A stretch of DNA of 64,000 bases from Clostridia bacterium (GCA_017942005.1 JAGAVJ010000021.1:102676-166675); one strand, 5' to 3'; numbered from the stretch's first letter, positions 1 through 11,811 are shown. Program-made: numbers and translations. Notes: generated from the sequence alone by a model not told the origin.

Positions 1-2496
1 GAAACAATAGGAAATAATGCATTTGATGGCTGTAAAGCGTTGAATACTATCACAATTCCTAAAAGTATCACAAAAATGGGAGAATATGTCTTTTCGGGTT
101 GTGAGGTTCTTTCTTTCGTAACATTTGAAGGACAAGAAGGACAACTGGAAGAAATAGCAAACGGTACCTTTCAATCCTGTGTCAATTTAACAACAATCAA
201 TATTCCTAATAGTGTAAAAAGAATCGGTGATTGGGCGTTTAATAGCTGCAATGCGCTTACAGAAGTAACGCTTCCCGTTTCGTTGGAAACAATAAGTGCT
301 GAAGCATTTTCTCATTCTGGCATCACAAAAATAATAATCCCGGATTCTGTAATAAGTATTGGCGAAAATGTATTTTTTGACTGTTGGGGTTTAGAAGAAA
401 TAATTATATCTGAACAGAGTCAACTTGAATCAGTCGGCGCTTGTGCTTTCCAAAGCACAATAATCCAAACGATTCAGTTTTCTGACAGTTTGAAATCGAT
501 AGGAAACGGAGCATTTTGTTTTTGCGGCAGTCTTGAATCTGTAACTTTAGGAAACGAACTTGAAACAATAGGAGGTGAAGCATTTTCTCATTGTGAAGCG
601 TTAAAAAGCATCATAATACCAGATAGTGTAAATTATATTGAAAACGATGCATTTATTGGCTGCGTAAGTTTGTCTTCTGTTATGCTTCCGACGACTATTG
701 AAACAATGGGGACTGGAGTATTCAGCGATTGTTCCAGTTTGACAGAAATTACAATTCCAAATGGTTTGATAAAGCTTAACGATTGGATGTTTCATAATTG
801 TGAAAAATTAACATCTGTAATATTGCCCGAAGGTTTAACTGAAATTGGAGAGGGCGCATTTTGTAATTGTACTGCACTTACAGAAGTAACGTTGCCCGAT
901 TTACTGGAAACCATTGGAAATCAGGCGTTCTATCATTGTGAAGTGTTAAAAAGCATCAAAATACCGGATAGTGTAACCTCTATTGGTGAAGATGCATTCA
1001 ATGGTTGTTTGGGTTTGTCATATGTTACACTTCCCGCCTATATCGAAACGATAGCCAAGAGCACTTTCTGCGATTGCGGCAGCTTAACAGAAATTGTCAT
1101 TCCAGATAGCGTGACATCCATTGGCGATTGGGCATTTGCTCATACTGCCATCACGGAAATAACGATTCCGGATTTTGTAACAAACATTGGCGAATATGCA
1201 TTTTATTGTACTCTATTGAAATCATTCCGGTTTCCGGAAAATATTACAGTGATCTCTGAAGGAATATTCAGGGATTGCCCCGATCTTCAAATGGTAACAG
1301 TTTATGGAAACGTGACGCAAATAGAAGAAAAAGCATTTTGGTCATGCGGAAATCTTCAATCTGTAAACTTTTTCGGGGATGCCCCGCGAATTGCTGATAC
1401 GGCTTTCCTTCAAGTAAACACTGATATGCTGCGGTTATATTATAAAAGTGACAGAAACGGTTGGGAAAACGCTGATTATCATTATGAAAATATTGTAAAT
1501 GAGATTGGAGATACATATACGTTTTCTTTAATAGTATCTCCTCACGATGTATGTAGTGACGAAACCCTCTGCGACAATGTCTGTGATGTTTGCGGCGAAT
1601 ATTTAAACAACATCAAAGCAAAGCTTGTCAGCCATTCTCTCAGCCTTGCAGGAGATATTGCAGCAAACTTCATCGTAGAATTTAAAGAACAGCCCTCACT
1701 GGATATCCGTATGATCTTTACGGTAAATGGAGAAGAGCAGGCGGTTTCGATATCGGAAGCAACATTAAAGACTGGCACGGCATCTACCTATATATTCCCC
1801 TGCCATGTTGGCGCACCGCAGATGACAGAACCGATTTATGGATATATCTCCGATGGTATAAATCAAAGCTCTACATTTACTTATACTGTAAAAACCTATG
1901 CCGACGCCATTTTAAACATGGCGCCAAGTGAAAACAATGATAAGCTTCAAAATCTTGTTCAGGCAATGCTGAATTACGGTGCATATTCACAGATGTATTT
2001 TAAGGTAAATATAGACAGCCTTGCCGCTGAGGTCGGTGAGGAGGAGCTAACGGCATTCATATCAATTGATGACGAATACGCCTTCGTAAAGCCCATAATT
2101 CCGGAAGGTTTTGGATTGTCCTACGCTGGTTCCAGCTTGATATTGAATTCCAATACCGTATTAAGACATTATTTTGACTTAGAGTCCGGAAGCACGATTA
2201 AGGATTATACCATTACGGCAACAACAGATGGCAATCAAAACATGCCATTGATACTTGGGGAGAAAAACGGTAAAAAATATGTACAGATTGAAAATATATC
2301 TGCTGCCGACCTTGACGTCAAGTATGAAATTACAGTTTCTAAGAATGATGAAAGTTTTACAATGGTATATAGTCCGCTTACCTATATAAGAAATAAACTG
2401 AATAGTTCAACGCCACATCTTAGTCATCTTGTAAATGCGCTTTATCTTTACCATACAGCGGCAGAAACGTATTTACACTATTCAAAGGAGCCTTGA
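1..2496 (+). CDS. BspA-type leucine-rich-repeat (LRR_5) surface protein, 5'-truncated by the window edge, with an uncharacterised tandem-repeat C-terminal domain
   Basis: Frame is open from base 1 (ETIGNNAFDGCKAL). About 20 repeats of ~23 aa (LxxIxIPxSVxxIGxxAFxxCxxL), then a Cys-rich linker (CDNVCDVCG) and a ~290 aa non-LRR C-terminus. No LPxTG, SLH or TM anchor is visible. Confidence 0.9.
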   Translation, partial: ETIGNNAFDGCKALNTITIPKSITKMGEYVFSGCEVLSFVTFEGQEGQLEEIANGTFQSCVNLTTINIPNSVKRIGDWAFNSCNALTEVTLPVSLETISAEAFSHSGITKIIIPDSVISIGENVFFDCWGLEEIIISEQSQLESVGACAFQSTIIQTIQFSDSLKSIGNGAFCFCGSLESVTLGNELETIGGEAFSHCEALKSIIIPDSVNYIENDAFIGCVSLSSVMLPTTIETMGTGVFSDCSSLTEITIPNGLIKLNDWMFHNCEKLTSVILPEGLTEIGEGAFCNCTALTEVTLPDLLETIGNQAFYHCEVLKSIKIPDSVTSIGEDAFNGCLGLSYVTLPAYIETIAKSTFCDCGSLTEIVIPDSVTSIGDWAFAHTAITEITIPDFVTNIGEYAFYCTLLKSFRFPENITVISEGIFRDCPDLQMVTVYGNVTQIEEKAFWSCGNLQSVNFFGDAPRIADTAFLQVNTDMLRLYYKSDRNGWENADYHYENIVNEIGDTYTFSLIVSPHDVCSDETLCDNVCDVCGEYLNNIKAKLVSHSLSLAGDIAANFIVEFKEQPSLDIRMIFTVNGEEQAVSISEATLKTGTASTYIFPCHVGAPQMTEPIYGYISDGINQSSTFTYTVKTYADAILNMAPSENNDKLQNLVQAMLNYGAYSQMYFKVNIDSLAAEVGEEELTAFISIDDEYAFVKPIIPEGFGLSYAGSSLILNSNTVLRHYFDLESGSTIKDYTITATTDGNQNMPLILGEKNGKKYVQIENISAADLDVKYEITVSKNDESFTMVYSPLTYIRNKLNSSTPHLSHLVNALYLYHTAAETYLHYSKEP

Positions 2497-3272
2497 TTCG
2501 ATTGATTAAGAAAAAATTTTATGTATTTTTATTATTTATCTGTGTTCTTATTATGAGCGTATCTTCCCGCATTTGCAATGCTACGGTAATTGAACTTCCG
2601 GAACTGCCTCTTGAGGGTACAAAGGAAACAGAAACAAAGCCTTCTGATAATTATACCTCTCCATCAGTCATAACGGATATTGTAGAACCGGAAGTGGAAC
2701 TGGATACGGATGAAACAGCGCCGCAGGAACTTACTATCAAAACAGTTCAATTCAACGATGTTTTGGTAGACAGCTATTATTATGAAGCTGTACAGTGGGC
2801 AGTTGAAAACCGTATTACAAGCGGAACGGGCGAAGAGACATTCAGTCCGGAGGTATCCTGTACACGCGGACAGATGGTAACATTTCTCTGGAGATTGGCA
2901 AAAGAACCAGAACCAACGATACAGAAATGTCCGTTTGCTGACGTTAACGAAGACGCCTATTATTATAAAGCCGTTTTATGGGCTTTGGAAAATCATTTAA
3001 CATCAGGAACATCAGACACTACATTCAGTCCTGACAGCATAGTAACCAGAGGACAAACTGTTACATTTTTATGGCGGTATGCAGGAAAACCAAGTACATC
3101 AAATTCGATAAATCCGTTTATAGATGTGGATAGCCATGCATATTACAGTGACGGTGTGGTTTGGGCATATCAGAACCATATTACATCGGGAACATCTCAG
3201 ACAGAATTTAGTCCTGATGCAAACTGTACCCGTTCGCAAATCGTGACATTTATGTGGCGTAATCAAAAATAA
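2493..3272 (+). CDS. Secreted S-layer homology (3x SLH) protein with N-terminal IELPELPLE motif and acidic Pro/Thr/Glu linker
   Basis: Signal peptide (KKK, hydrophobic stretch, ...ICNA). Three SLH repeats (FxDVxxxxYYxxAVxWAxxNxITSGT...FSPxxxxTRxQxVTFLWR). TTG start overlaps the upstream TGA. Confidence 0.9.
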   Translation: MIRLIKKKFYVFLLFICVLIMSVSSRICNATVIELPELPLEGTKETETKPSDNYTSPSVITDIVEPEVELDTDETAPQELTIKTVQFNDVLVDSYYYEAVQWAVENRITSGTGEETFSPEVSCTRGQMVTFLWRLAKEPEPTIQKCPFADVNEDAYYYKAVLWALENHLTSGTSDTTFSPDSIVTRGQTVTFLWRYAGKPSTSNSINPFIDVDSHAYYSDGVVWAYQNHITSGTSQTEFSPDANCTRSQIVTFMWRNQK

Positions 3273-3299
3273 TTTTAACAGAAGAAAGGAAGAACTGTG

Positions 3300-3407
3300 A
3301 TGAACAAAGAACAATATGAAACCCCAATTATTGAGGTTGTGGAATTTGAAACTGAGGATATTATTACGACAAGCAATAATGAATTTGAATGCGAAGTTGA
3401 TATTTAA
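3300..3407 (+). CDS. 35-aa RiPP-like precursor peptide MNKEQYETPIIEVVEFETEDIITTSNNEFECEVDI
   Basis: Translated by hand (below the ORF-track cutoff). SD GAAAGGA upstream. YxxP-x-I leader motif typical of RRE-bound leaders. Lies directly upstream of the kinase/RRE/peptidase genes. Confidence 0.8.
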   Translation: MNKEQYETPIIEVVEFETEDIITTSNNEFECEVDI

Positions 3408-3417
3408 AAGTATAAAC

Positions 3418-3477
3418 ATGAAAGAACATTATGTTACACCAGATGAAATTGAACTTCCAGAAATTCCATTAGAATAA
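3418..3477 (+). CDS. 19-aa micro-peptide MKEHYVTPDEIELPEIPLE (short or internally deleted precursor)
   Basis: Translated by hand. YxxP motif as in the preceding peptide; C-terminus matches the SLH protein motif 8/9. SD is weak, so it may be translationally coupled or a relic. Confidence 0.6.
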   Translation: MKEHYVTPDEIELPEIPLE

Positions 3478-3554
3478 AATGAAACGCACTCTGTATACCA
3501 GATAATTAAATAGTCTGTATACAGAGTGTTCTTATATACGCAATGGAGAAAACG

Positions 3555-4247
3555 ATGTTTTCCATAAAACTTGCCAACCATATCTTTACAGTTCAAAATC
3601 AATATTCCTATGTTGAACGCTTGTGTCACGGCTATTTATGTGATAAACCCGGCATACCGATCACTGTGACAGAGGAGGAAATTGAGAGGGAACAGACTGC
3701 CGATATCCAATTTTCAAAAGAATATCTGGAAAGCCTTGCCGTTTACCGCAAAATCTGTGAGTATCTTTTGCACGATGATATCCTTCTGTTTCATGCATCT
3801 GCCGTTATGCTGGACGGAAAGGCATATCTGTTTACAGCGCCGAGCGGAACAGGCAAGAGTACCCATGCAAGGTTGTGGCGTGAAAAATTTGGAAATCGGC
3901 TGGCGGTAATCAATGACGACAAGCCGCTTTTATCGATTACAAAAGACTGTATTACCGTGTACGGAACACCTTATGCAGGCAAGGAACATCTGCAAACGAA
4001 TACCTGTGCCAGAGTTAATGCAATTGTGTTTTTGCATCAGGCGCCGGAGAATACGGTATGCAGATTAAACGCGCATGAAGCGTATCCGAAACTGCTGAAT
4101 CAGGCATACCGTCCTGCCGACAGCACAGGGATGATCAAAACCATGGATTTGATAAAATGCTTGTCCCAGCTTCCCCTGTATTCGCTTCACTGCACGATTT
4201 CACAGGAAGCCGTAGACCTGCTATATTCGCAATTAAAGGAGCTATAA
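3555..4247 (+). CDS. HPr-kinase-like P-loop protein (RiPP peptide-kinase-like)
   Basis: FHASAV...APSGTGKST (His plus Walker A), INDD acidic motif, YGTPY. GGAG SD precedes ATG 3555; alternative start 3543. Confidence 0.8.
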   Translation: MFSIKLANHIFTVQNQYSYVERLCHGYLCDKPGIPITVTEEEIEREQTADIQFSKEYLESLAVYRKICEYLLHDDILLFHASAVMLDGKAYLFTAPSGTGKSTHARLWREKFGNRLAVINDDKPLLSITKDCITVYGTPYAGKEHLQTNTCARVNAIVFLHQAPENTVCRLNAHEAYPKLLNQAYRPADSTGMIKTMDLIKCLSQLPLYSLHCTISQEAVDLLYSQLKEL

Positions 4248-4249
4248 AC

Positions 4250-4519
4250 ATGAAATTGAAAAATGGATTTATTCTCCATGATGTGGGAGACGAACATTTT
4301 GTGGTTGCTACAGAAGATGCATTAAAGACGTTTCACGGAATGATTCGCAACAATGCAAGCGCCAATTTCATCTTTCAGCAGCTGCAAAGAGATACAACAG
4401 AAGAGAAAATTGTTGCAGCAATGCTGAAAAAATATGATGCACCAAAGGAAGTCATTGCTTTCGATGTACACCGTGTGATTGCACAGATACGGAAAGCCGG
4501 TCTTTTGGATGAAGGATGA
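4250..4519 (+). CDS. PqqD-family RiPP recognition element (RRE)
   Basis: 89 aa, MKLKNGFILHDVGDEHFVV...NASANFIFQQL...YDAPKEVIAFDV...LLDE, consistent with the 3-strand/3-helix PqqD pattern. SD AAGGAG. Confidence 0.85.
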   Translation: MKLKNGFILHDVGDEHFVVATEDALKTFHGMIRNNASANFIFQQLQRDTTEEKIVAAMLKKYDAPKEVIAFDVHRVIAQIRKAGLLDEG

Positions 4520-4976
4520 AACTGCGGTGATTGCTGCACAGCTGCGGGCAGGAAAAACAGTGGTGACTTCAACGCGCGGCGTCAGCATGGAACCGCTCTT
4601 GCATGAAGACAAAACCCTTGTCACCCTTCAGCCGGTACAAAGGACACTTTGCGTAGGAGAATTGCCGATTTTCCTTCGTAACGACGGAAAATATGTCATT
4701 CACCGCATCATTGAGGTGCATGACGCCTATTATCGTACAAGAGGAGATAACTGTCTGTCGTCGGAAACAGTACCGCATACATCGGTACTCGGTGTTGTTA
4801 CCGAGATATACAGAAATGGAAGCTATCTCAAGGTGACTGACAAAAAGTATCTATTATATGTATGGATATGGAGAATTACAACGCCGCTCAGACTTATGAT
4901 ATTCAGAGGAATCACATGGTTAAAACGTATCATCAGACGGATTCGTCAAAAGAAGAAAAAAGAGAACAATACCTAA
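4509..4976 (+). CDS. S24/S26-family peptidase (Ser-His type, no N-terminal TM)
   Basis: GVSMEP (catalytic Ser), YVIHRII, TRGDN motifs. Basic amphipathic C-terminus. Overlaps the RRE stop. Confidence 0.85.
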   Translation: MKDETAVIAAQLRAGKTVVTSTRGVSMEPLLHEDKTLVTLQPVQRTLCVGELPIFLRNDGKYVIHRIIEVHDAYYRTRGDNCLSSETVPHTSVLGVVTEIYRNGSYLKVTDKKYLLYVWIWRITTPLRLMIFRGITWLKRIIRRIRQKKKKENNT

Positions 4977-6136
4977 AAGCAGAATATGCCATGCTGTATC
5001 TTACCGCCTGCGGCTTGCACGGTATAAAACCCGATATTGCAGCGGTACGTGCAATGGACTTGGAAGCGGTCTATGCCATCAGTCATCAACAAAGCTTATC
5101 CGCGATTACCTTTACAGCGCTTGCGCTGACAGAAGATGAAAATTTGCATCACACACCGATTTTTCTGCGGTGGCAGGAAGCGAAAAACAAGGCGATTGCA
5201 AAAAACGCTTTGCTGGATATCGAGCGGACAAAACTGTGTGCCTTTCTTGATGAAAAGCAAATATGGTACTTGCCGTTGAAAGGGATTGTCTTAAAAACAT
5301 TTTATCCAAAACCGGAAATGCGCCAGATGGCAGACAATGACATTTTGTTTGATGCTGCATATGAGCAAACGGTACATGACTATTTTACTGCACAAGGGTA
5401 TACTTCAAAGTCTTATGGTGTGAGCCACCATGATATTTATCAAAAACCGCCGATATTGAACTTTGAAATGCATACTGACTTATTTTATAAAACCCATGAT
5501 CCAGTATGGGATACATATTATTCCGATATCAAGTCCAGACTTCTTTGCGATCATCACTATGCCTATCGGTTTCGTGATGAAGATTTTTATATCTATCTGA
5601 TAACACATATGTATAAGCATTACAGCTTTGGCGGTATAGGTGTACGTTCTCTTTTGGACTGCTATGTCTACAATCGCGTAAAAGGGACTGCCCTGGATTG
5701 GTGCTATGTGGAATGTGAGTTGGAAAAATTAGGGATTCTCACATTTGAAAAGAAAATGCGGCAGCTTGCATGGAACGTTTTTTCGTGTCCGGATAATCCT
5801 TCTTTTTCAAAGCTGTTACCGGAAGAACAGGACGCTTTGACGTACTTTTTTGCATCCGGAACATATGGCTCTGTTACGCATCGTGTACAGAATGATTTAA
5901 AAAAAATAAACGGGCAAAGCTCACAGGTTCCGATTATGGTACGGTTGAGCTATATCATAACACGTTTTTTCCCGGATCCTGCGTTTATGCGGGTATGGTG
6001 CAATTGCTATTGTCCTTTTTTGAAATTACACCCCAAACTGTTCTTTCTTGCCTACCCATATCGTATTTTAACGAAGGGATTTAAAAATATGAGGCAATAT
6101 ATCAAGGAATGTCATATCATTATGAAAATTAAATAA
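4862..6136 (+). CDS. Nucleotidyltransferase-family protein (NTP_transf_5-like); start uncertain
   Basis: LPLKGIVL...RQMADNDIL, FEMHTDL, HMYKH...GGIGVRSLLD motifs. The first ~40 codons overlap the peptidase gene, so the true start may be later (4916 or 4991). Confidence 0.8.
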   Translation: MDMENYNAAQTYDIQRNHMVKTYHQTDSSKEEKREQYLKAEYAMLYLTACGLHGIKPDIAAVRAMDLEAVYAISHQQSLSAITFTALALTEDENLHHTPIFLRWQEAKNKAIAKNALLDIERTKLCAFLDEKQIWYLPLKGIVLKTFYPKPEMRQMADNDILFDAAYEQTVHDYFTAQGYTSKSYGVSHHDIYQKPPILNFEMHTDLFYKTHDPVWDTYYSDIKSRLLCDHHYAYRFRDEDFYIYLITHMYKHYSFGGIGVRSLLDCYVYNRVKGTALDWCYVECELEKLGILTFEKKMRQLAWNVFSCPDNPSFSKLLPEEQDALTYFFASGTYGSVTHRVQNDLKKINGQSSQVPIMVRLSYIITRFFPDPAFMRVWCNCYCPFLKLHPKLFFLAYPYRILTKGFKNMRQYIKECHIIMKIK

Positions 6137-6153
6137 TACCGTCTAATACGAAG

Positions 6154-6199
6154 AAAAAACGCAATACCGCAGGAAAAAACTTGCGGTATTGCGTTTTTT
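6154..6199. terminator. Bidirectional intrinsic terminator ending the RiPP-like operon
   Basis: AAAAAACGCAATACCGCA / TGCGGTATTGCGTTTTTT perfect 18-bp inverted repeat. Confidence 0.85.
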
Positions 6200-6339: not shown

Positions 6340-7058
<719 letters not shown>

Positions 7059-7299: not shown

Positions 7300-7422
7300 A
7301 TGGAATATATGTCTTACACTAAAGATGCGGATAAGTGGGATATTTCAAAAAGATGGAAACCAAGTCTGAAAAATAAATTTTTCAGACCGTGTTTTGTGGC
7401 TTACGCCACAACTCCACATTAG
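7300..7422 (+). pseudogene. Remnant of a small HTH DNA-binding gene (MEYMSYTKDADKWDISKRW...) fused to repeat copy B
   Basis: SD GAAAGGA. N-terminus resembles the MEYMS...A.KW.IS.R excisionase-like HTH pattern, then runs into element sequence. Confidence 0.45.
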
Positions 7423-7467
7423 AAAGGAAATAACTTTTACAAAGTAAAAGTTATGGTCATAATCATG
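7362..7467 (+). repeat. Structured start-site element, copy B
   Basis: GTCTGAAAAAT/ATTTTTCAGAC; TTGTGGC-TTAC-GCCACAA; SD GAAAGGA; TAACTTTTAC-AAA-GTAAAAGTTA; ATGGTCATAATCATG. Confidence 0.8.
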
Positions 7468-8169
7468 AATGAATACAAAATAATGATCGTTGATGATGAG
7501 CCGGACATATTGGAGCTGCTTGAAAAATCACTTGCCGTCGAGGGCTTCCGCCATATCATAAAAATAGACAACGGACTTTCTGCGGTAAGCTCCTGCAAGG
7601 AATTACAACCTGACGTGATTATTTTGGACGTTATGCTGCCGGGGCTTGACGGTTACGAGGTCTGCAAACGAATTCGAGCGTTTTCCCATTGCCCGATTTT
7701 ATTTCTTTCATCAAAGAATGATGAATTGGATAAAATACTTGGTTTGGCTGTCGGCGGAGACGATTATGTAACAAAGCCGTTCAGTCCGAAAGAGGTGGCT
7801 TTCCGCGTAAAAGCGCAGCTGCGCCGGGTAGAGTATAGGCAGCATCCACTGAAAGAACAGTCCATAAAGGTTGGGGCATTGAACATTGATCCGGAGGGCT
7901 GCCGGGTCACGAAAGATGGAAAGGAGATTGAACTGACTGCCCGCGAATTTGAAATCCTGCAATACATGGCGCAGAATATCGGACGTGTCATAAGTCGTGA
8001 AAGGCTGTATGAAACGGTATGGGGTGAGGACAGTTACGGGTGTGATAATACAATTATGGTGCATATCCGGCACTTGCGGGAAAAGATTGAAAATAACCCC
8101 GCCTACCCAAAATACCTTATCACCATGAAAGGCTTGGGCTACAAGTTGGTAAATCCCCATGAAACATAA
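7453..8169 (+). CDS. OmpR-family response regulator
   Basis: IVDDE, LDVMLP, GGDDYVTKPF, winged-HTH TIMVHIRHLREKIE. Start 7453 or 7465. Confidence 0.95.
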   Translation: MVIIMNEYKIMIVDDEPDILELLEKSLAVEGFRHIIKIDNGLSAVSSCKELQPDVIILDVMLPGLDGYEVCKRIRAFSHCPILFLSSKNDELDKILGLAVGGDDYVTKPFSPKEVAFRVKAQLRRVEYRQHPLKEQSIKVGALNIDPEGCRVTKDGKEIELTAREFEILQYMAQNIGRVISRERLYETVWGEDSYGCDNTIMVHIRHLREKIENNPAYPKYLITMKGLGYKLVNPHET

Positions 8170-9580
8170 ACTGAAACACAATCCCTTTCTTCATACAGCG
8201 GTGATATTGGTTGTCCTTTTTGTCATTCTGATTATGTTCGCAATCGGTATGTTTTACTATGTCTTTGCAATTCCAGAGCCAGAAGGATTCAGTCTTGCTT
8301 CATGGCCGAATACCTTTACCGACAATTTTTCTGAATGGATAGAAGAAAAAAACGGGAGTATCGGTGTAAAAGAAATCGGCATAGAACGGTTGGATAAATA
8401 CGGCTTGTGGGTACAGATTGTTGACGAAAACGGACAAGAACGATTTGCGCACAACAAGCCTGCTTACTATCCGGACAGTTACAGCATGGCAGAGATGATC
8501 TCCCTTGCTGAAAGCAGATATGAAAACGGATATACCGTTTTTATCAATACTGTTACGCTTTCGGATAGGACACTCAACTATGTGATTGGCTTTCCTTATG
8601 CTGTTGGAAAGTATATGCTGTATTATAACGGTGAAAATGTGGCGCGGTTGTCACCATTCACAAAAACCGTGGTGTTTTTGTCTGCCGCTGTTTTGGTTTT
8701 TTGCGCCTTTGCGTATACATTTTGGCTTTCCCGAAAGCTGTCAACTGTGATCGGTGGTATTAGAAACATCATGCAAAACAATTACAAGCCTTTAAAGGAA
8801 GCAGGGATCTTCGGGGAAACATACAACTCGCTGAATAAAATGAATATGGAAATCCGGCGCAGTGAGAAGGTACAACAGGAAACCGACCGTACCAGAAAGG
8901 AATGGATAACAAATATTACCCATGACTTGAAAACCCCTCTTTCGCCGATAAAAGGATATGCGGAGCTTCTTTCCACAGGAAGCAGTCTTGATTTACAGAC
9001 GGTGCAGGACTGGGGGAAACTGATTTTGAAGAATGCAGATTACATGGAAACGCTGATGAACGATTTAAAACTGACATATCAGCTCGAAGCTGGAGCAATC
9101 CCCTATACTCCACAGGAAATACGGATCGTTCGTTTCCTGAAAGAGTTGGTAATCGATATCATAAACGATCCTGCTTTTTCAAAGCGGACGATAGCGTTTG
9201 AAAGTGGTATGTCGGAGCTGATAGCTGTAGTTGACCCCGATCTTCTGCGCCGCGCTGTCGGGAATATCGTTATCAACGCCCTTGTGCATAATCCCCCTGA
9301 TACCAAAGTTAAAATAACGGTTAACAAAACCCCGGATAACTGCCTGTCTATTTCCATTTGCGATAATGGAAGCGGCATGGACGAAACAGAACTGTCCGAC
9401 TTGTGGAACCGTTATTACAGAGGAACGAACACCAAAGAACGGTCAGAAGGCAGCGGACTTGGGCTTGCCATTGCAAAGCAGATTGTCACGCTTCATGGCG
9501 GCGAAATTGCCGTCAAGAGCAGTCCCGGTGTGGGGACGAAATTTATAATCCTGCTTCCGCTTGGGGCTGCTGCAAATTAA
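8159..9580 (+). CDS. Sensor histidine kinase
   Basis: Two TM segments, THDLKTPL H-box, NALVHN, DNGSG, GSGLGL. Confidence 0.95.
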   Translation: MKHKLKHNPFLHTAVILVVLFVILIMFAIGMFYYVFAIPEPEGFSLASWPNTFTDNFSEWIEEKNGSIGVKEIGIERLDKYGLWVQIVDENGQERFAHNKPAYYPDSYSMAEMISLAESRYENGYTVFINTVTLSDRTLNYVIGFPYAVGKYMLYYNGENVARLSPFTKTVVFLSAAVLVFCAFAYTFWLSRKLSTVIGGIRNIMQNNYKPLKEAGIFGETYNSLNKMNMEIRRSEKVQQETDRTRKEWITNITHDLKTPLSPIKGYAELLSTGSSLDLQTVQDWGKLILKNADYMETLMNDLKLTYQLEAGAIPYTPQEIRIVRFLKELVIDIINDPAFSKRTIAFESGMSELIAVVDPDLLRRAVGNIVINALVHNPPDTKVKITVNKTPDNCLSISICDNGSGMDETELSDLWNRYYRGTNTKERSEGSGLGLAIAKQIVTLHGGEIAVKSSPGVGTKFIILLPLGAAAN

Positions 9581-9630
9581 GATGAAATTAAGATACGCAA
9601 AAGCAACACATAAGATAGGTGGTCTATACT
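9577..9630 (+). promoter_or_regulatory. Probable response-regulator direct-repeat site and -10 for the ABC operon
   Basis: TTAAGAT at 9577 and 9588, ATAAGAT at 9610 (11 and 22 bp phasing); TATACT at 9625-9630; no consensus -35. Confidence 0.65.
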
Positions 9631-9692
9631 AATAAGCATAGGCCGCCTACCTTTTTTTGTGTGCCTATGATTAAAACAAGGAGGATTTTGTT

Positions 9693-10598
9693 ATGGAATT
9701 ACAACTACAGCATTTAAGCAAACACTATGGTACCAAATACGCGGTTCATGATGTTAGTACCACGCTTTCGCCCGGCGTGTATGGTCTGCTTGGTGCAAAC
9801 GGTGCGGGAAAGACGACGTTAATGCGTATGCTCTGCGGCGTTTTAGCGCCCACTTTTGGCAGGATTTGTTTGGATGGGCAGAGCATTGAGAAATTGGGGG
9901 AAGATTATTACGCCCATTTGGGCTATATGCCGCAGGACTTTGGCTTTTACCCCGACTTTACTGCACGCGAATTTATGCGATATATGGCGGCGGTGAAGGG
10001 GCTTGACAAAAAAGAAGTAAAAGACCGTACAGAGGAATTATTAAAATTGGTGAATCTGCATCATGTAGCAGACAAAAAAATCAAATTCTTTTCCGGCGGC
10101 ATGAAGCAGCGTTTAGGAATTGCTCAGGCAGAGCTGAACTCCCCTGACATTCTCATATTAGACGAGCCGACTGCCGGGCTCGACCCCAAAGAGCGTGTGC
10201 GCTTTCGCAATCTGATATCTGATTTTGCAAAGGAAAAAATTGTCATTCTGTCTACCCATATTGTATCGGATGTTTCCTATATCGCAGATACCATTTTGAT
10301 GATGAAAGACGGAACATTTCTGCTGCAAGAGCCTATGGCTGCTGTAACCGACTGTATCAGAGGCAAGGTATGGGAGCTTTTGGTGAGTGACCGGGAAGCC
10401 GCAGAATACAGCAGCCGCTTTTCCGTTGTTAATCTGCACCATGAAAATGGAAAAGTACGTTTGCGCATGATCCATGAAACAATTCCGGCAGCGGACGCTA
10501 TCACGGTCCAACCGAGTTTAGAAGATTTATTCTTATATTACTTTGGAGAAGAAGCCGGGACAGAAAGGAGCGAATCAGGTTATGTTAGTAAAATATGA
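9693..10598 (+). CDS. ABC transporter ATP-binding protein
   Basis: GANGAGKTT, SGGMKQR, ILDEPT, STH. Confidence 0.95.
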   Translation: MELQLQHLSKHYGTKYAVHDVSTTLSPGVYGLLGANGAGKTTLMRMLCGVLAPTFGRICLDGQSIEKLGEDYYAHLGYMPQDFGFYPDFTAREFMRYMAAVKGLDKKEVKDRTEELLKLVNLHHVADKKIKFFSGGMKQRLGIAQAELNSPDILILDEPTAGLDPKERVRFRNLISDFAKEKIVILSTHIVSDVSYIADTILMMKDGTFLLQEPMAAVTDCIRGKVWELLVSDREAAEYSSRFSVVNLHHENGKVRLRMIHETIPAADAITVQPSLEDLFLYYFGEEAGTERSESGYVSKI

Positions 10599-11811
10599 AT
10601 TTTTGAAGATACTCCGAAAAAAATCCACACGGATTGTCATGGCAGTCAGTCTGCTTGTAACGGCGTTTCTCTTTGGTCTGCCGATCCTGCAATTCCAGAC
10701 CTATCATCAGGAGGGGGTAATCAAAGGATTTGAAGGGATCAACTATGAAAAGGAACAGACAGCGAAGTATGCCGTCTCTCTGACAGATACGTACATCACC
10801 GAAGCAATCCGCGAGGTACAGCAGCTTTTTGACAATCCCGATTATGTGGGGTATGACGGTCACGAGCGTTTTTTAATCGAGAACGCCTATTGGGATAATA
10901 TTGCGCCAAAGGAAGCCCTATTGGGGATGATTGCCAAAAACTTTGCAAATCCAAACGAAAGCGTGGGGTATAATTCTCTGCCGGAATTGGACATTTCAGA
11001 GGGTGTAAACTTCTATCGGGCAAGACAGGAAAAAATCGAAAAACTGTTAAATGCTTCTTCTAATGGAATGTCCGAGAAACAAAAGACGTATTGGCAAAAC
11101 ATGAACAGCAAAGTTGATGAACCGTTTCAATATGGCTACTACAAAGGATGGGAGGTTATAATAAGCAGCTTTGAGCTGCTGACATTTGCACTTTTCGCTG
11201 TCTGCATCGTGATTGCCCCTGTCTTTTCCGGCGAGTATCAAGCCGGAACAGATGCGGTAATTCTATCGGCAAAATATGGAAAAACAAAGCTTACCACGGC
11301 TAAAATCATAGCTTCCTATCTGTTCGGGGTGTTAGCCTTTACGCTCCATGTCATCATAGCGCTTGGACTGCCTCTTGCAGCATTCGGCTTTGAGGGGTGG
11401 GATTTGCCGCTGCAAATTGCAAACACGACAATACCGTATCCGCTTACATTCCTGCAGGCTGCGCTTATCCAGTTAAGCGTGGTTTACCTTGTATTGTCCG
11501 CCCTGATTGGCTTGACGCTTCTGCTGTCAGCAAAAATGAAAAGTCCATATCTTGTGCTTACCGTGCTTGCGCCAGTTCTTTTTATTCCACTGTTTCTCTC
11601 ACCTAACGGGACAACAGGCGTATATAACTTAACTTTGTTTTTATTACCGTACCGAGCCACTGTGCCGGAGCTTGGAAACTATATCTCCTATCAGTTTGGC
11701 GGGATAGTCTTTGACGCATTTACCATGAGAGCCATTTTGTATGCGGTGCTTACGATGATTATGCTGCCAATTGCAAGAATTGGATTTAAGAAACATCAGG
11801 TATCAGCATAG
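10582..11811 (+). CDS. ABC-2 type permease (peptide-antibiotic resistance/export type)
   Basis: TM1, large extracellular loop, FSGEYQAG...SAKYGK motif, further TMs. SD GAAAGGAG. Confidence 0.85.
   Translation: MLVKYEFLKILRKKSTRIVMAVSLLVTAFLFGLPILQFQTYHQEGVIKGFEGINYEKEQTAKYAVSLTDTYITEAIREVQQLFDNPDYVGYDGHERFLIENAYWDNIAPKEALLGMIAKNFANPNESVGYNSLPELDISEGVNFYRARQEKIEKLLNASSNGMSEKQKTYWQNMNSKVDEPFQYGYYKGWEVIISSFELLTFALFAVCIVIAPVFSGEYQAGTDAVILSAKYGKTKLTTAKIIASYLFGVLAFTLHVIIALGLPLAAFGFEGWDLPLQIANTTIPYPLTFLQAALIQLSVVYLVLSALIGLTLLLSAKMKSPYLVLTVLAPVLFIPLFLSPNGTTGVYNLTLFLLPYRATVPELGNYISYQFGGIVFDAFTMRAILYAVLTMIMLPIARIGFKKHQVSA

Follow-up and report, generated by a model that had tools for sequence, protein, structure and literature searches.

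The closest described systems to the locus considered here are the paeninodin and pseudomycoidin lasso peptide clusters, which combine a precursor with the parts K (a homologue of HPr kinase), B1 (the recognition element), B2, N (a nucleotidyltransferase), C (the cyclase) and D (an ABC protein). According to the review PMC8498205, the kinase of these clusters acts on a C-terminal Ser, after which the nucleotidyltransferase (NTase) adds a hexose, and NTases of lasso clusters are found beside B2 or fused to it. The present locus opens a 64,000-nucleotide stretch of DNA from a Clostridia bacterium (GCA_017942005.1, JAGAVJ010000021.1:102676-166675; in our numbering G000:C38:102676-166675), hereafter the window. 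It encodes a leucine-rich repeat (LRR) protein, an S-layer homology (SLH) protein, the small peptides pepA and pepB, and four tightly packed genes for a P-loop protein (KIN), a PqqD-family recognition element (RRE) of RiPPs (peptides made by the ribosome and then given post-translational modifications), a Ser-His peptidase (S26) and an NTase (NT5). A PqqD RRE, a P-loop protein of HPrK fold and an NTP_transf_5 NTase, often accompanied by an ATP-binding cassette (ABC) protein, recall the paeninodin and pseudomycoidin clusters, as do the YxxP motif and the Thr at position -2 of the leader. Unlike those clusters, the cassette contains neither cyclase nor B2, has S26 instead, and makes peptides whose cores are mostly not lasso-compatible; its NTase is fused, in relatives, to S26 instead of B2. 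KIN and NT5 are likened to PadeK, PsmK and PsmN by family and fold, not by direct sequence.

On balance, and with a confidence a little above even, we regard the locus as belonging to a pathway, widespread in gut Clostridia, that depends on an RRE to mature and export peptides, is kin to lasso machinery and gives a linear product. In the proposed scheme, pepA is translated with a conserved leader, of which the Y-x-x-P...E-[VI]-[VI]-x-F part would, by homology, be bound by the RRE. KIN and NT5 would act on the RRE-bound peptide with ATP/NTP; a C-terminal Ser is ruled out as their site, and the candidates are the hydroxyls of T-T-S or a carboxylate, the only invariant hydroxyls being those of Y6 and the T-T-S run, and carboxylates the other feature constant among the cores. 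S26 would then cut after I-T-T-S in the role of lasso B2, the Thr at -2 being reminiscent of lasso leaders. The short acidic peptide would be exported, with cleavage coupled to export where an ABC exporter is present; in many relatives this exporter is encoded between S26 and the NTase. Finally, the cassette would be tied to an upstream surface module, consisting of a large secreted protein that ends in domain X and a tether whose free end shares its tail with a peptide core; in this locus the tether would be the SLH protein, and in relatives a lipoprotein of low complexity.

Relatives were collected in two scans. The scan for KIN, with one genome per species, gave at least 551 confirmed of 600 matched stretches, so that KIN relatives are present on at least 551 species-representative contigs; that for the NTase, on metagenome contigs, gave 433 confirmed of 595. 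The best 80 of each scan were analysed (L012-L091, KIN-anchored; L092-L171, NTase-anchored; the window's own locus is labelled OWN), and the frequencies given below therefore describe close relatives, not the whole family. Hidden Markov models (HMMs) of the cassette proteins were built from the KIN-anchored set and applied to both sets. RRE was found in 70, S26 in 41 and NT5 in 25 of the 80 KIN-anchored loci, with all four families in 18; the NTase-anchored loci contain KIN in 44, RRE in 50 and S26 in 39 cases, with all four in 36 despite a median contig of 8.6 kb. Among individual carriers, L028, which stems from a cultured Clostridiales strain, has the peptide together with KIN, RRE, S26 and NT5, and L046 (Eubacterium segne) has KIN, RRE and S26 only.

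The evidence for the pathway begins with the peptides. A leader HMM, seeded with the YxxP ORFs adjoining KIN and then searched against all loci, detected 51 distinct peptides in 44 of the 160 loci in addition to pepA, the only match in the window's own genome. The original prediction had staked itself on conserved peptide ORFs in homologous loci, and this family supplies them. The leader consensus is K-x-Y-x-x-P-x-x-E-[VI]-[VI]-x-F-x-x-x-D-[VI]-I-T-T-S, followed by a short acidic core. Y6, F16, D20 and S25 are invariant in an alignment of 30 peptides, in which conservation reaches at least 90% at E12, I22, T23 and T24; the leader ends in I-T-T-S in 37 of the 51 peptides, and the Pro of YxxP is retained in 36. 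A Thr directly precedes the last leader residue, at the -2 position typical of lasso leaders, in at least 90% of the sequences. In pepA, the leader extends as far as ...DIITTS, and an acidic core of 10 residues, beginning with Asn, comes after it. Leaders accompany the enzymes: within the KIN-anchored set, 9 of the 47 loci that have S26 or NT5 contain one, versus 1 of the 33 that have neither. The second peptide of the original prediction fares less well than pepA: pepB consists of the leader start KEHYVTP fused directly to an IELPEIPLE tail, lacks the leader middle and end, and does not reach the threshold of the leader HMM (E 10). Its translation is doubtful, and pepB may represent a degenerate copy.

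Two variants of the leader family were observed. In L041 (9303-9785), the leader motif starts a product of ~116 residues that contains an acidic stretch of low complexity and finishes in a Tyr/Thr-rich part; the leader may also direct larger substrates. In 6 of the 160 loci, a radical SAM protein (Radical_SAM E 2e-15, Fer4_12) is encoded between a Cys-rich peptide of the same family and KIN (L081 5613-7195, L052 5240-6782, L115, L148, L159 and L165); this variant re-uses the leader and RRE, with predicted chemistry of thioether type. The window cassette contains no radical SAM maturase, and the sole match to the variant enzyme in the same genome lies on contig C12 (E 1.5e-11).

The cores are variable, 6-28 residues long with a median of 13, rich in Pro, Gly and Asp/Glu, and net negative in 49 of 51 cases; they begin with Gly in 20 and with Asn in 10. 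None of the 51 ends in Ser, and 12 contain no Ser or Thr at all. The phosphorylated and nucleotidylated product of the original prediction, which was modelled on paeninodin and pseudomycoidin, has to be abandoned in that form, since paeninodin-type chemistry cannot be the conserved step where no core has a C-terminal Ser. Only 5 of the 51 cores are lasso-compatible (G, A, S or C at position 1, D or E at positions 7-9, and sufficient length), and the pepA core is not among these. The cassette thus appears to re-use lasso machinery without ring formation, on a substrate different from that of lasso systems.

What has become of the cyclase and of B2? No cyclase is present in the 18.7 kb of upstream DNA, since only the start of the LRR gene, a sigma-factor fusion and opposite-strand housekeeping genes lie there. 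A search of the own genome, whose completeness is 88.17%, gave no match to Transglut_core3 (B2, PF13471), and the Asn_synthase matches of that genome are confined to contigs C15, C29 and C18, with no RRE nearby. Those on C29 include two tandem Asn-synthetase-like ORFs (C29:111646-115707; 536 and 542 residues), and neither KIN nor RRE is found on that contig. An HMM for B2, trained on five genuine B2 proteins from the same class, gave no match at E<=1 in OWN and the 160 loci. Asn synthetases were sought with an HMM of six diverse members and a PP-loop motif scan, used in place of a tblastn screen with housekeeping AsnB that was discarded as too insensitive; an ORF of this family was detected in four of the 160 loci (L023, L024, L049 and L140), each time 3-6 kb from the cassette and resembling housekeeping paralogues. 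The absence of cyclase and B2 noted in the original prediction thus extends to the relatives: the arrangement that it had named as its refutation, with both enzymes immediately upstream or consistently present in homologous loci, was looked for and did not appear.

True B2 proteins are uncommon in the class (PF13471-type above cut-off in 7 of 400 genomes), and loci that carry them can be set beside the present one. B2-bearing clusters L192-L196 (from G061, G188, G215, G161 and G140) resemble the present cassette in having an RRE, HPrK-like proteins, an NTase and peptides with a YEKP-type leader start, and in giving no Asn-synthetase match (by Pfam, none in L192 and L193). L192-L195 encode one or two HPrK-like proteins, RRE and NTP_transf_5, and L196 RRE and NTP_transf_5 only; several ...TYEKPxLEK... 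peptides occur in L193-L195, and DUF362 and a B12 radical SAM protein are additionally encoded in L193. These clusters look like a second cyclase-less, lasso-like family. Unlike the present one, they keep B2 and have no S26; their leaders end in ...NLNExTK as opposed to ...DVITTS; their HPrK-like proteins are ~320 residues long compared with ~235 for KIN; and neither domain X nor a matching lipoprotein was observed in them. Their KIN (E ~1e-6), RRE (E 1e-13 to 1e-16) and NT5 homologues are distant. Because the leader starts are similar, the ends different and the homologues distant, the leader family is best understood as sharing ancestry with lasso-type recognition while forming a separate lineage.

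In the place of B2, the cassette encodes S26. The protein has no Pfam match at E<=0.01; it scores 35.5 bits (E 8e-9) against TIGR02228 (sigpep_I_arch; cut-off 51.85) and 22.2 bits against a second curated signal-peptidase model (cut-off 190), and a sequence search of the PDB found human SEC11A only weakly (E 0.016). The motifs GxSMxP, HR and GDN, which form the Ser-His dyad signature of the Sec11/SipW subtype, do not vary in 30 of 30 homologues (G34, S36, M37, P39, H75, R76, G89, D90 and N91). No hydrophobic N-terminal segment is present. Fusions of S26 occur in relatives: with the N-terminus of an ABC exporter in L066, and in full with the NTase in L050, L058, L062 and L089, remnants of the latter fusion being present in L042 and L068. 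From the missing anchor and the fusions to NTase and exporter, the active site is most likely cytoplasmic. The position of S26, its fusions and the small residues at -1 and -3 suggest cleavage after I-T-T-S, and S26 would thus be the leader peptidase in the place of lasso B2. The idea that a signal-peptidase-fold enzyme replaces B2, already part of the original prediction, gains from the invariant motifs and the fusions; its statement that an exporter is absent is true of this locus but not of relatives, where an ABC gene sits between S26 and the NTase in many cases. All five families, including an ABC match, were found in 29 of the 80 NTase-anchored loci; when any ABC match per locus is counted, the figures are 39 for the KIN-anchored and 48 for the NTase-anchored set.

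Two known kinds of peptidase invite comparison. With the SipW/Sec11 signal peptidases I (TIGR02228, NF046067), which are also its best sequence matches, S26 shares the three motifs and, around the predicted site, small residues in positions -1 and -3 that obey the signal-peptidase rule; unlike them, it scores below the cut-offs, has no membrane anchor, probably has a cytoplasmic catalytic domain, and is found in RiPP-like rather than secreted-protein operons. PCATs are the C39-domain peptidase-containing ABC transporters of double-glycine bacteriocins. By analogy, S26 would resemble them as a cytoplasmic leader peptidase coupled to an ABC exporter. It differs in being a Ser-His S26 enzyme and not a Cys C39 enzyme, and in its I-T-T-S leader with RRE in place of the double glycine.

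KIN has no match in the local Pfam copy at E<=0.01, Hpr_kinase_C (PF07475) included, and only sub-threshold NCBIfam matches to ScmC and the HprK-related kinases A and B (E 1e-6 to 3e-3). Its 6181 database relatives are grouped under the precomputed family PF27840, which is absent from the local Pfam copy, and the only named one is a 'hypothetical protein'; a sequence search of the PDB gave chance-level matches only (best E 0.035, xylanases). The motifs SGxGKSTH and NDDKP are invariant in 17 of 17 KIN sequences. An AlphaFold2 model (predicted local distance difference test score, pLDDT, 93.3; predicted template-modelling score 0.89) was matched by Foldseek to ATP-dependent PEPCK (E 3e-7) and to HprK/P catalytic domains (E 2.5e-5), the HprK/P chains reaching target-normalised template-modelling (TM) scores of 0.36-0.54. 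The model places KIN in the PEPCK/HprK P-loop fold, at fold level, and KIN is accordingly predicted to be a kinase; the description 'kinase-like' in the original prediction is upheld by the fold, but not by a match to Hpr_kinase_C. The RRE also matches lasso_PqqD_Strm (E 2e-7), below its cut-off; PqqD-family RREs are peptide-binding domains. NT5 has no PDB match by sequence and conserves G141, R154, D158, D160, E202 and H204, in a G...R...DxD...E.H pattern, in 16 of 16 homologues. The pairing of an HPrK-like protein with PqqD is shared with Haft's HprK-related/PqqD systems (TIGR04352, TIGR04355 and ScmC, TIGR04249), to which KIN matches far below cut-off (28 versus 125 bits; 17 versus 200) and whose partners and taxa differ.

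KIN relatives at E<=1e-10 are present, usually as a single copy, in 148 of 399 sampled genomes of the class, a count that includes a second subgroup of ~290-300 residues matching only over the C-terminal two-thirds. Their contexts vary. Pairs of KIN and RRE were observed with a divergent gene for an ApbE lipoprotein on one side and DUF1846 on the other, often with GroES/GroEL next, in L029, L033, L035-L038, L043-L045, L047, L048, L051, L054, L056, L060, L064, L067, L073, L082 and L085; no S26, NTase or leader peptide was detected in these standalone loci. In five loci, KIN, RRE and S26 follow PFL and DUF815 genes. A ~330-residue protein without Pfam family (cluster c28) is encoded in or beside the cassette in 4 of the 80 KIN-anchored loci (L028 703-1701, L013 5602-6606, L063 and L070).

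The surface module upstream of the peptides provides a second line of evidence. Domain X, the C-terminal part of the LRR protein, has no Pfam match at E<0.01. Its AlphaFold2 model (pLDDT 82.7) contains two immunoglobulin (Ig)-like beta-sandwiches, each followed by a long helix, and Foldseek returned generic Ig tandems only (TM ~0.2). Homologues of domain X form the C-termini of otherwise different large proteins. Of the 43 loci with a plus-strand leader peptide, 34 offer 1.2 kb or more of upstream sequence; in 19 of the 43, the end of domain X lies no more than 3 kb before the first peptide, mostly less than 100 nt. It occurs in 17 of 400 genomes in the class sample, and KIN is present in 14 of these 17 compared with the background of 148 in 399; the two adjoin in five genomes (G000, G014, G087 (twice), G177 and G398).

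The tether is less uniform. A tblastn search found no relatives of the SLH protein beside cassettes in other loci. A cassette-side lipoprotein is often present there, with 145-255 residues, a lipobox and an acidic or Ser/Thr-rich low-complexity stalk; a strict filter counted it in 17 of the 160 loci, and more were seen by eye (L017, L018, L052 and L066). The C-terminal end of the lipoprotein resembles the end of the peptide core of the same locus, most often as [IV]-[ED]-L-P-x-[IV]-P-x-x. In L112, 10 of 11 residues of the tail pair are identical, 8 of them by different codons, and in L116 an unrelated motif, ...GLDWSPL..., is shared at 9 of 11 residues, 6 by different codons. In the window, IELPELPLE of the SLH protein and the pepB tail agree at 8 of 9 residues, 4 by different codons; this is the sole match of at least 6 of 9 among 127,942 six-frame window positions. 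The SLH protein is anchored at its C-terminus and carries the motif at its free N-terminal end; the pepA core has no such tail. In a permutation test over seven dereplicated loci, the same-locus tail scores summed to 258, compared with a permutation mean of 175 (standard deviation 26); the observed sum was reached in 161 of 20,000 permutations.

Since the tail identity persists across saturated synonymous sites, it is held by selection and not by recent gene conversion. The surface-protein link of the original prediction is borne out as conserved, and is not due to chance, as regards domain X and the tail match; the SLH protein itself is not conserved. The synteny is thus seen directly, as is a tail match kept by selection. 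As to what they mean, we favour a shared binding partner, for which domain X is the obvious candidate. A more specific proposal, tentative and unlikely in our estimate, is that the exported peptide is a soluble mimic of the tether tail and that both dock to the Ig-like domain X of the adjacent giant surface protein, forming a switch under control of the peptide that would attach or release BspA-type adhesins in a RiPP-regulated, cohesin-dockerin-like display.

Several observations weigh against the proposed pathway. The cores contain no conserved modifiable residue. No leader peptide lies within 10 kb in 70 of the 80 KIN-anchored loci, and ~21 loci, mostly in Christensenellaceae-like metagenome-assembled genomes, contain KIN and RRE only, between ApbE and DUF1846/GroES-EL; from these loci, the KIN-RRE core may have a role that needs no nearby precursor, and none of the readings considered here explains them. 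S26 is under the curated family cut-offs and without the N-terminal anchor of true signal peptidases, and the window cassette has no exporter. The Asn-synthetase HMM, which gave no match inside the cassette in any of the 160 loci, was used without a lasso-cyclase positive control. On the surface side, pepB, the carrier of the window's tail match, has no clear ribosome-binding site; domain X was not found in 24 of the 43 peptide loci, occurs without KIN in G386, G069 and G330, and lies on other contigs in several genomes; and the permutation set is small, with 3 of 7 loci related and L122 as a counter-example (rank 7 of 7).

The best surviving alternative, though an unlikely one, is that the peptides are exported signalling pheromones that undergo leader removal only, KIN and NT5 being regulatory or concerned with export and the tether tails being a second, Sec-dependent source. 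Short, acidic cores lacking a conserved site for modification would suit this, as would the presence of the same tail on Sec-exported lipoproteins, which never meet the cytoplasmic enzymes. In RNPP systems, the pheromone is the C-terminal part of its precursor, and the active part would likewise be C-terminal here. No receptor or regulator is conserved with the cassette, however, an extracytoplasmic function (ECF) sigma domain being adjacent in only 2 of the 160 loci besides OWN; and KIN and NT5 retain their catalytic motifs, which argues for enzymatic action, with NT5 moreover fused to the peptidase in relatives.

Quite unlikely is an antimicrobial RiPP of bacteriocin type, with the surface neighbours unrelated or serving immunity. 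Precursor, leader peptidase and ABC exporter are arranged as in bacteriocin loci, the radical SAM sub-variants with Cys-rich peptides resemble ranthipeptides and sactipeptides, and the lipoprotein whose tail matches could serve as a decoy in immunity. The strongly anionic cores, some of 6-8 residues, would be unusual for peptides that target membranes or lipid II; no immunity ABC or membrane protein is conserved, and synteny and tail match are left unaccounted for. It is distinctly improbable that KIN and RRE are a general-purpose pair acting on a non-RiPP substrate, the small ORFs and surface genes being lineage-specific add-ons. The breadth of KIN across the class, the many KIN loci lacking a leader and the many housekeeping contexts speak for such a pair; but leaders recur adjoining the enzymes in S26/NT5 loci, PqqD RREs are known peptide binders, and the fusions tie S26 to exporter and NTase. 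A conventional lasso cluster with its cyclase and B2 elsewhere, in trans or unassembled, is very improbable: the YxxP start, the Thr at -2, the paeninodin/pseudomycoidin accessory set of kinase, RRE and NTase and the incomplete genome would allow it, but the upstream DNA, the genome with its Asn synthetases on other contigs, the 160 loci and the cores largely rule out a hidden cyclase.

The coordinates of the features are collected in Table 1. ORF calls, Pfam and NCBIfam searches and a terminator scan agree on a single co-oriented run on the plus strand over positions 1-6199, and every element of the inventory in the original prediction, including the strong terminator, was found in its place.

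Table 1. Features of the cassette and its surface module (positions in the window)
Feature	Position	Strand	Description
LRR protein	1..2496	+	3' two-thirds of a 1305-residue secreted BspA-type LRR protein; LRR_5 E 4e-193
Domain X	1582..2472	+	C-terminal ~300 residues of the LRR protein; without Pfam family
SLH protein	2493..3272	+	259 residues, cell-wall-anchored; SLH x3, E 8e-28
IELPELPLE motif	2589..2615	+	Mature N-terminus (free end) of the SLH protein; matches the pepB tail
pepA	3300..3407 (or GTG at 3297)	+	35-residue precursor, YETP motif; leader HMM E 1e-13
pepB	3418..3477	+	19-residue ORF, YVTP motif; starts 10 nt past pepA
Hairpin	3486..3529	+	Between peptide genes and KIN; -22 kcal/mol, z -5.12
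KIN	3555..4247 (alternative start 3543)	+	P-loop protein, PEPCK/HprK fold
RRE	4250..4519	+	89-residue PqqD-family RiPP recognition element; PqqD E 2e-13
S26	4479..4976 (probable start 4509)	+	Sec11/SipW-like Ser-His peptidase
NT5 (NTase)	4862..6136 (start 4862 or 4916)	+	NTP_transf_5, PF14907 E 4e-39
Intrinsic terminator	6154..6199	+	20-bp stem, 8 GC pairs, T run; closes the gene run

The LRR gene starts 1422 nt upstream of base 1, and the N-terminal part of its product (LRR_5 E 7e-262) begins with a signal-peptide-like sequence. The SLH protein, whose gene overlaps the LRR stop by 4 nt, consists of a signal peptide, a low-complexity acidic linker and three SLH repeats. The start of pepA, 27 nt past the SLH gene, is preceded by the Shine-Dalgarno-like sequence AAAGGAAG. 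None of 200 shuffled sequences folds as stably as the hairpin that follows the peptide genes; it may be an attenuator or processing site, and its position would fit the usual layout, in which a strongly expressed precursor precedes enzyme genes subject to attenuation. The genome has a single copy each of KIN, RRE, S26, NT5, domain X and the leader peptide.

Upstream of the LRR gene lies an ECF-sigma fusion of 828 residues (C38:98497-100983; L006 14498-16984), followed by opposite-strand genes for LUD, IF3, SpoU, DprA, TopA, a GidA-family protein, PlsX and RNase III. The fusion combines N-terminal sigma regions 2 and 4 with hydrophobic segments, an extended extracytoplasmic portion and C-terminal LRR-like repeats, and resembles a one-piece sigma/sensor. 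It was excluded as a component of the system, since the only related loci with an adjacent sigma domain are L032 and L140. Directly beyond the terminator, a serine recombinase gene (6375-7058; Resolvase E 6e-26) is flanked by near-identical stem-loops at 6345-6366 and 7364-7387, which may together constitute a small invertible or mobile unit. Further on, a response regulator, a histidine kinase and an ABC ATPase are encoded at 7453-10600; this unrelated block resembles a module for peptide sensing or detoxification, falls beyond the terminator that bounds the run, and shows no conservation with the cassette.

Clusters annotated as 'incomplete lasso' and 'RRE-containing', many of them from the rumen and gut, appear in the portions of the surveys PMC7533575 and PMC13289728 used here, RRE-containing clusters being second only to ranthipeptides in the rumen-isolate survey (PMC13289728). 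Predicted peptide loci of gut and rumen Clostridia include RRE-containing clusters of unassigned type among their commonest kinds. The leader family probably contributes to both categories. Literature searches on the leader motif and on combinations of the enzyme names, which did not cover the supplementary tables of these two surveys, found no description of the family, nor of a link of this kind between a peptide and a surface protein.

Overall, the locus defines a large RRE family by its leader, by a peptidase of Sec11/SipW fold and by two ATP/NTP enzymes. S26 would represent a new kind of leader peptidase, cytoplasmic and fused to exporters, and the family would be an example of lasso machinery put to a new use in which no ring is formed. 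The mimicry of a surface tether is the part that could prove categorically new: the matching tails point to a possible link between small secreted peptides and large adhesin-like display in abundant gut commensals.

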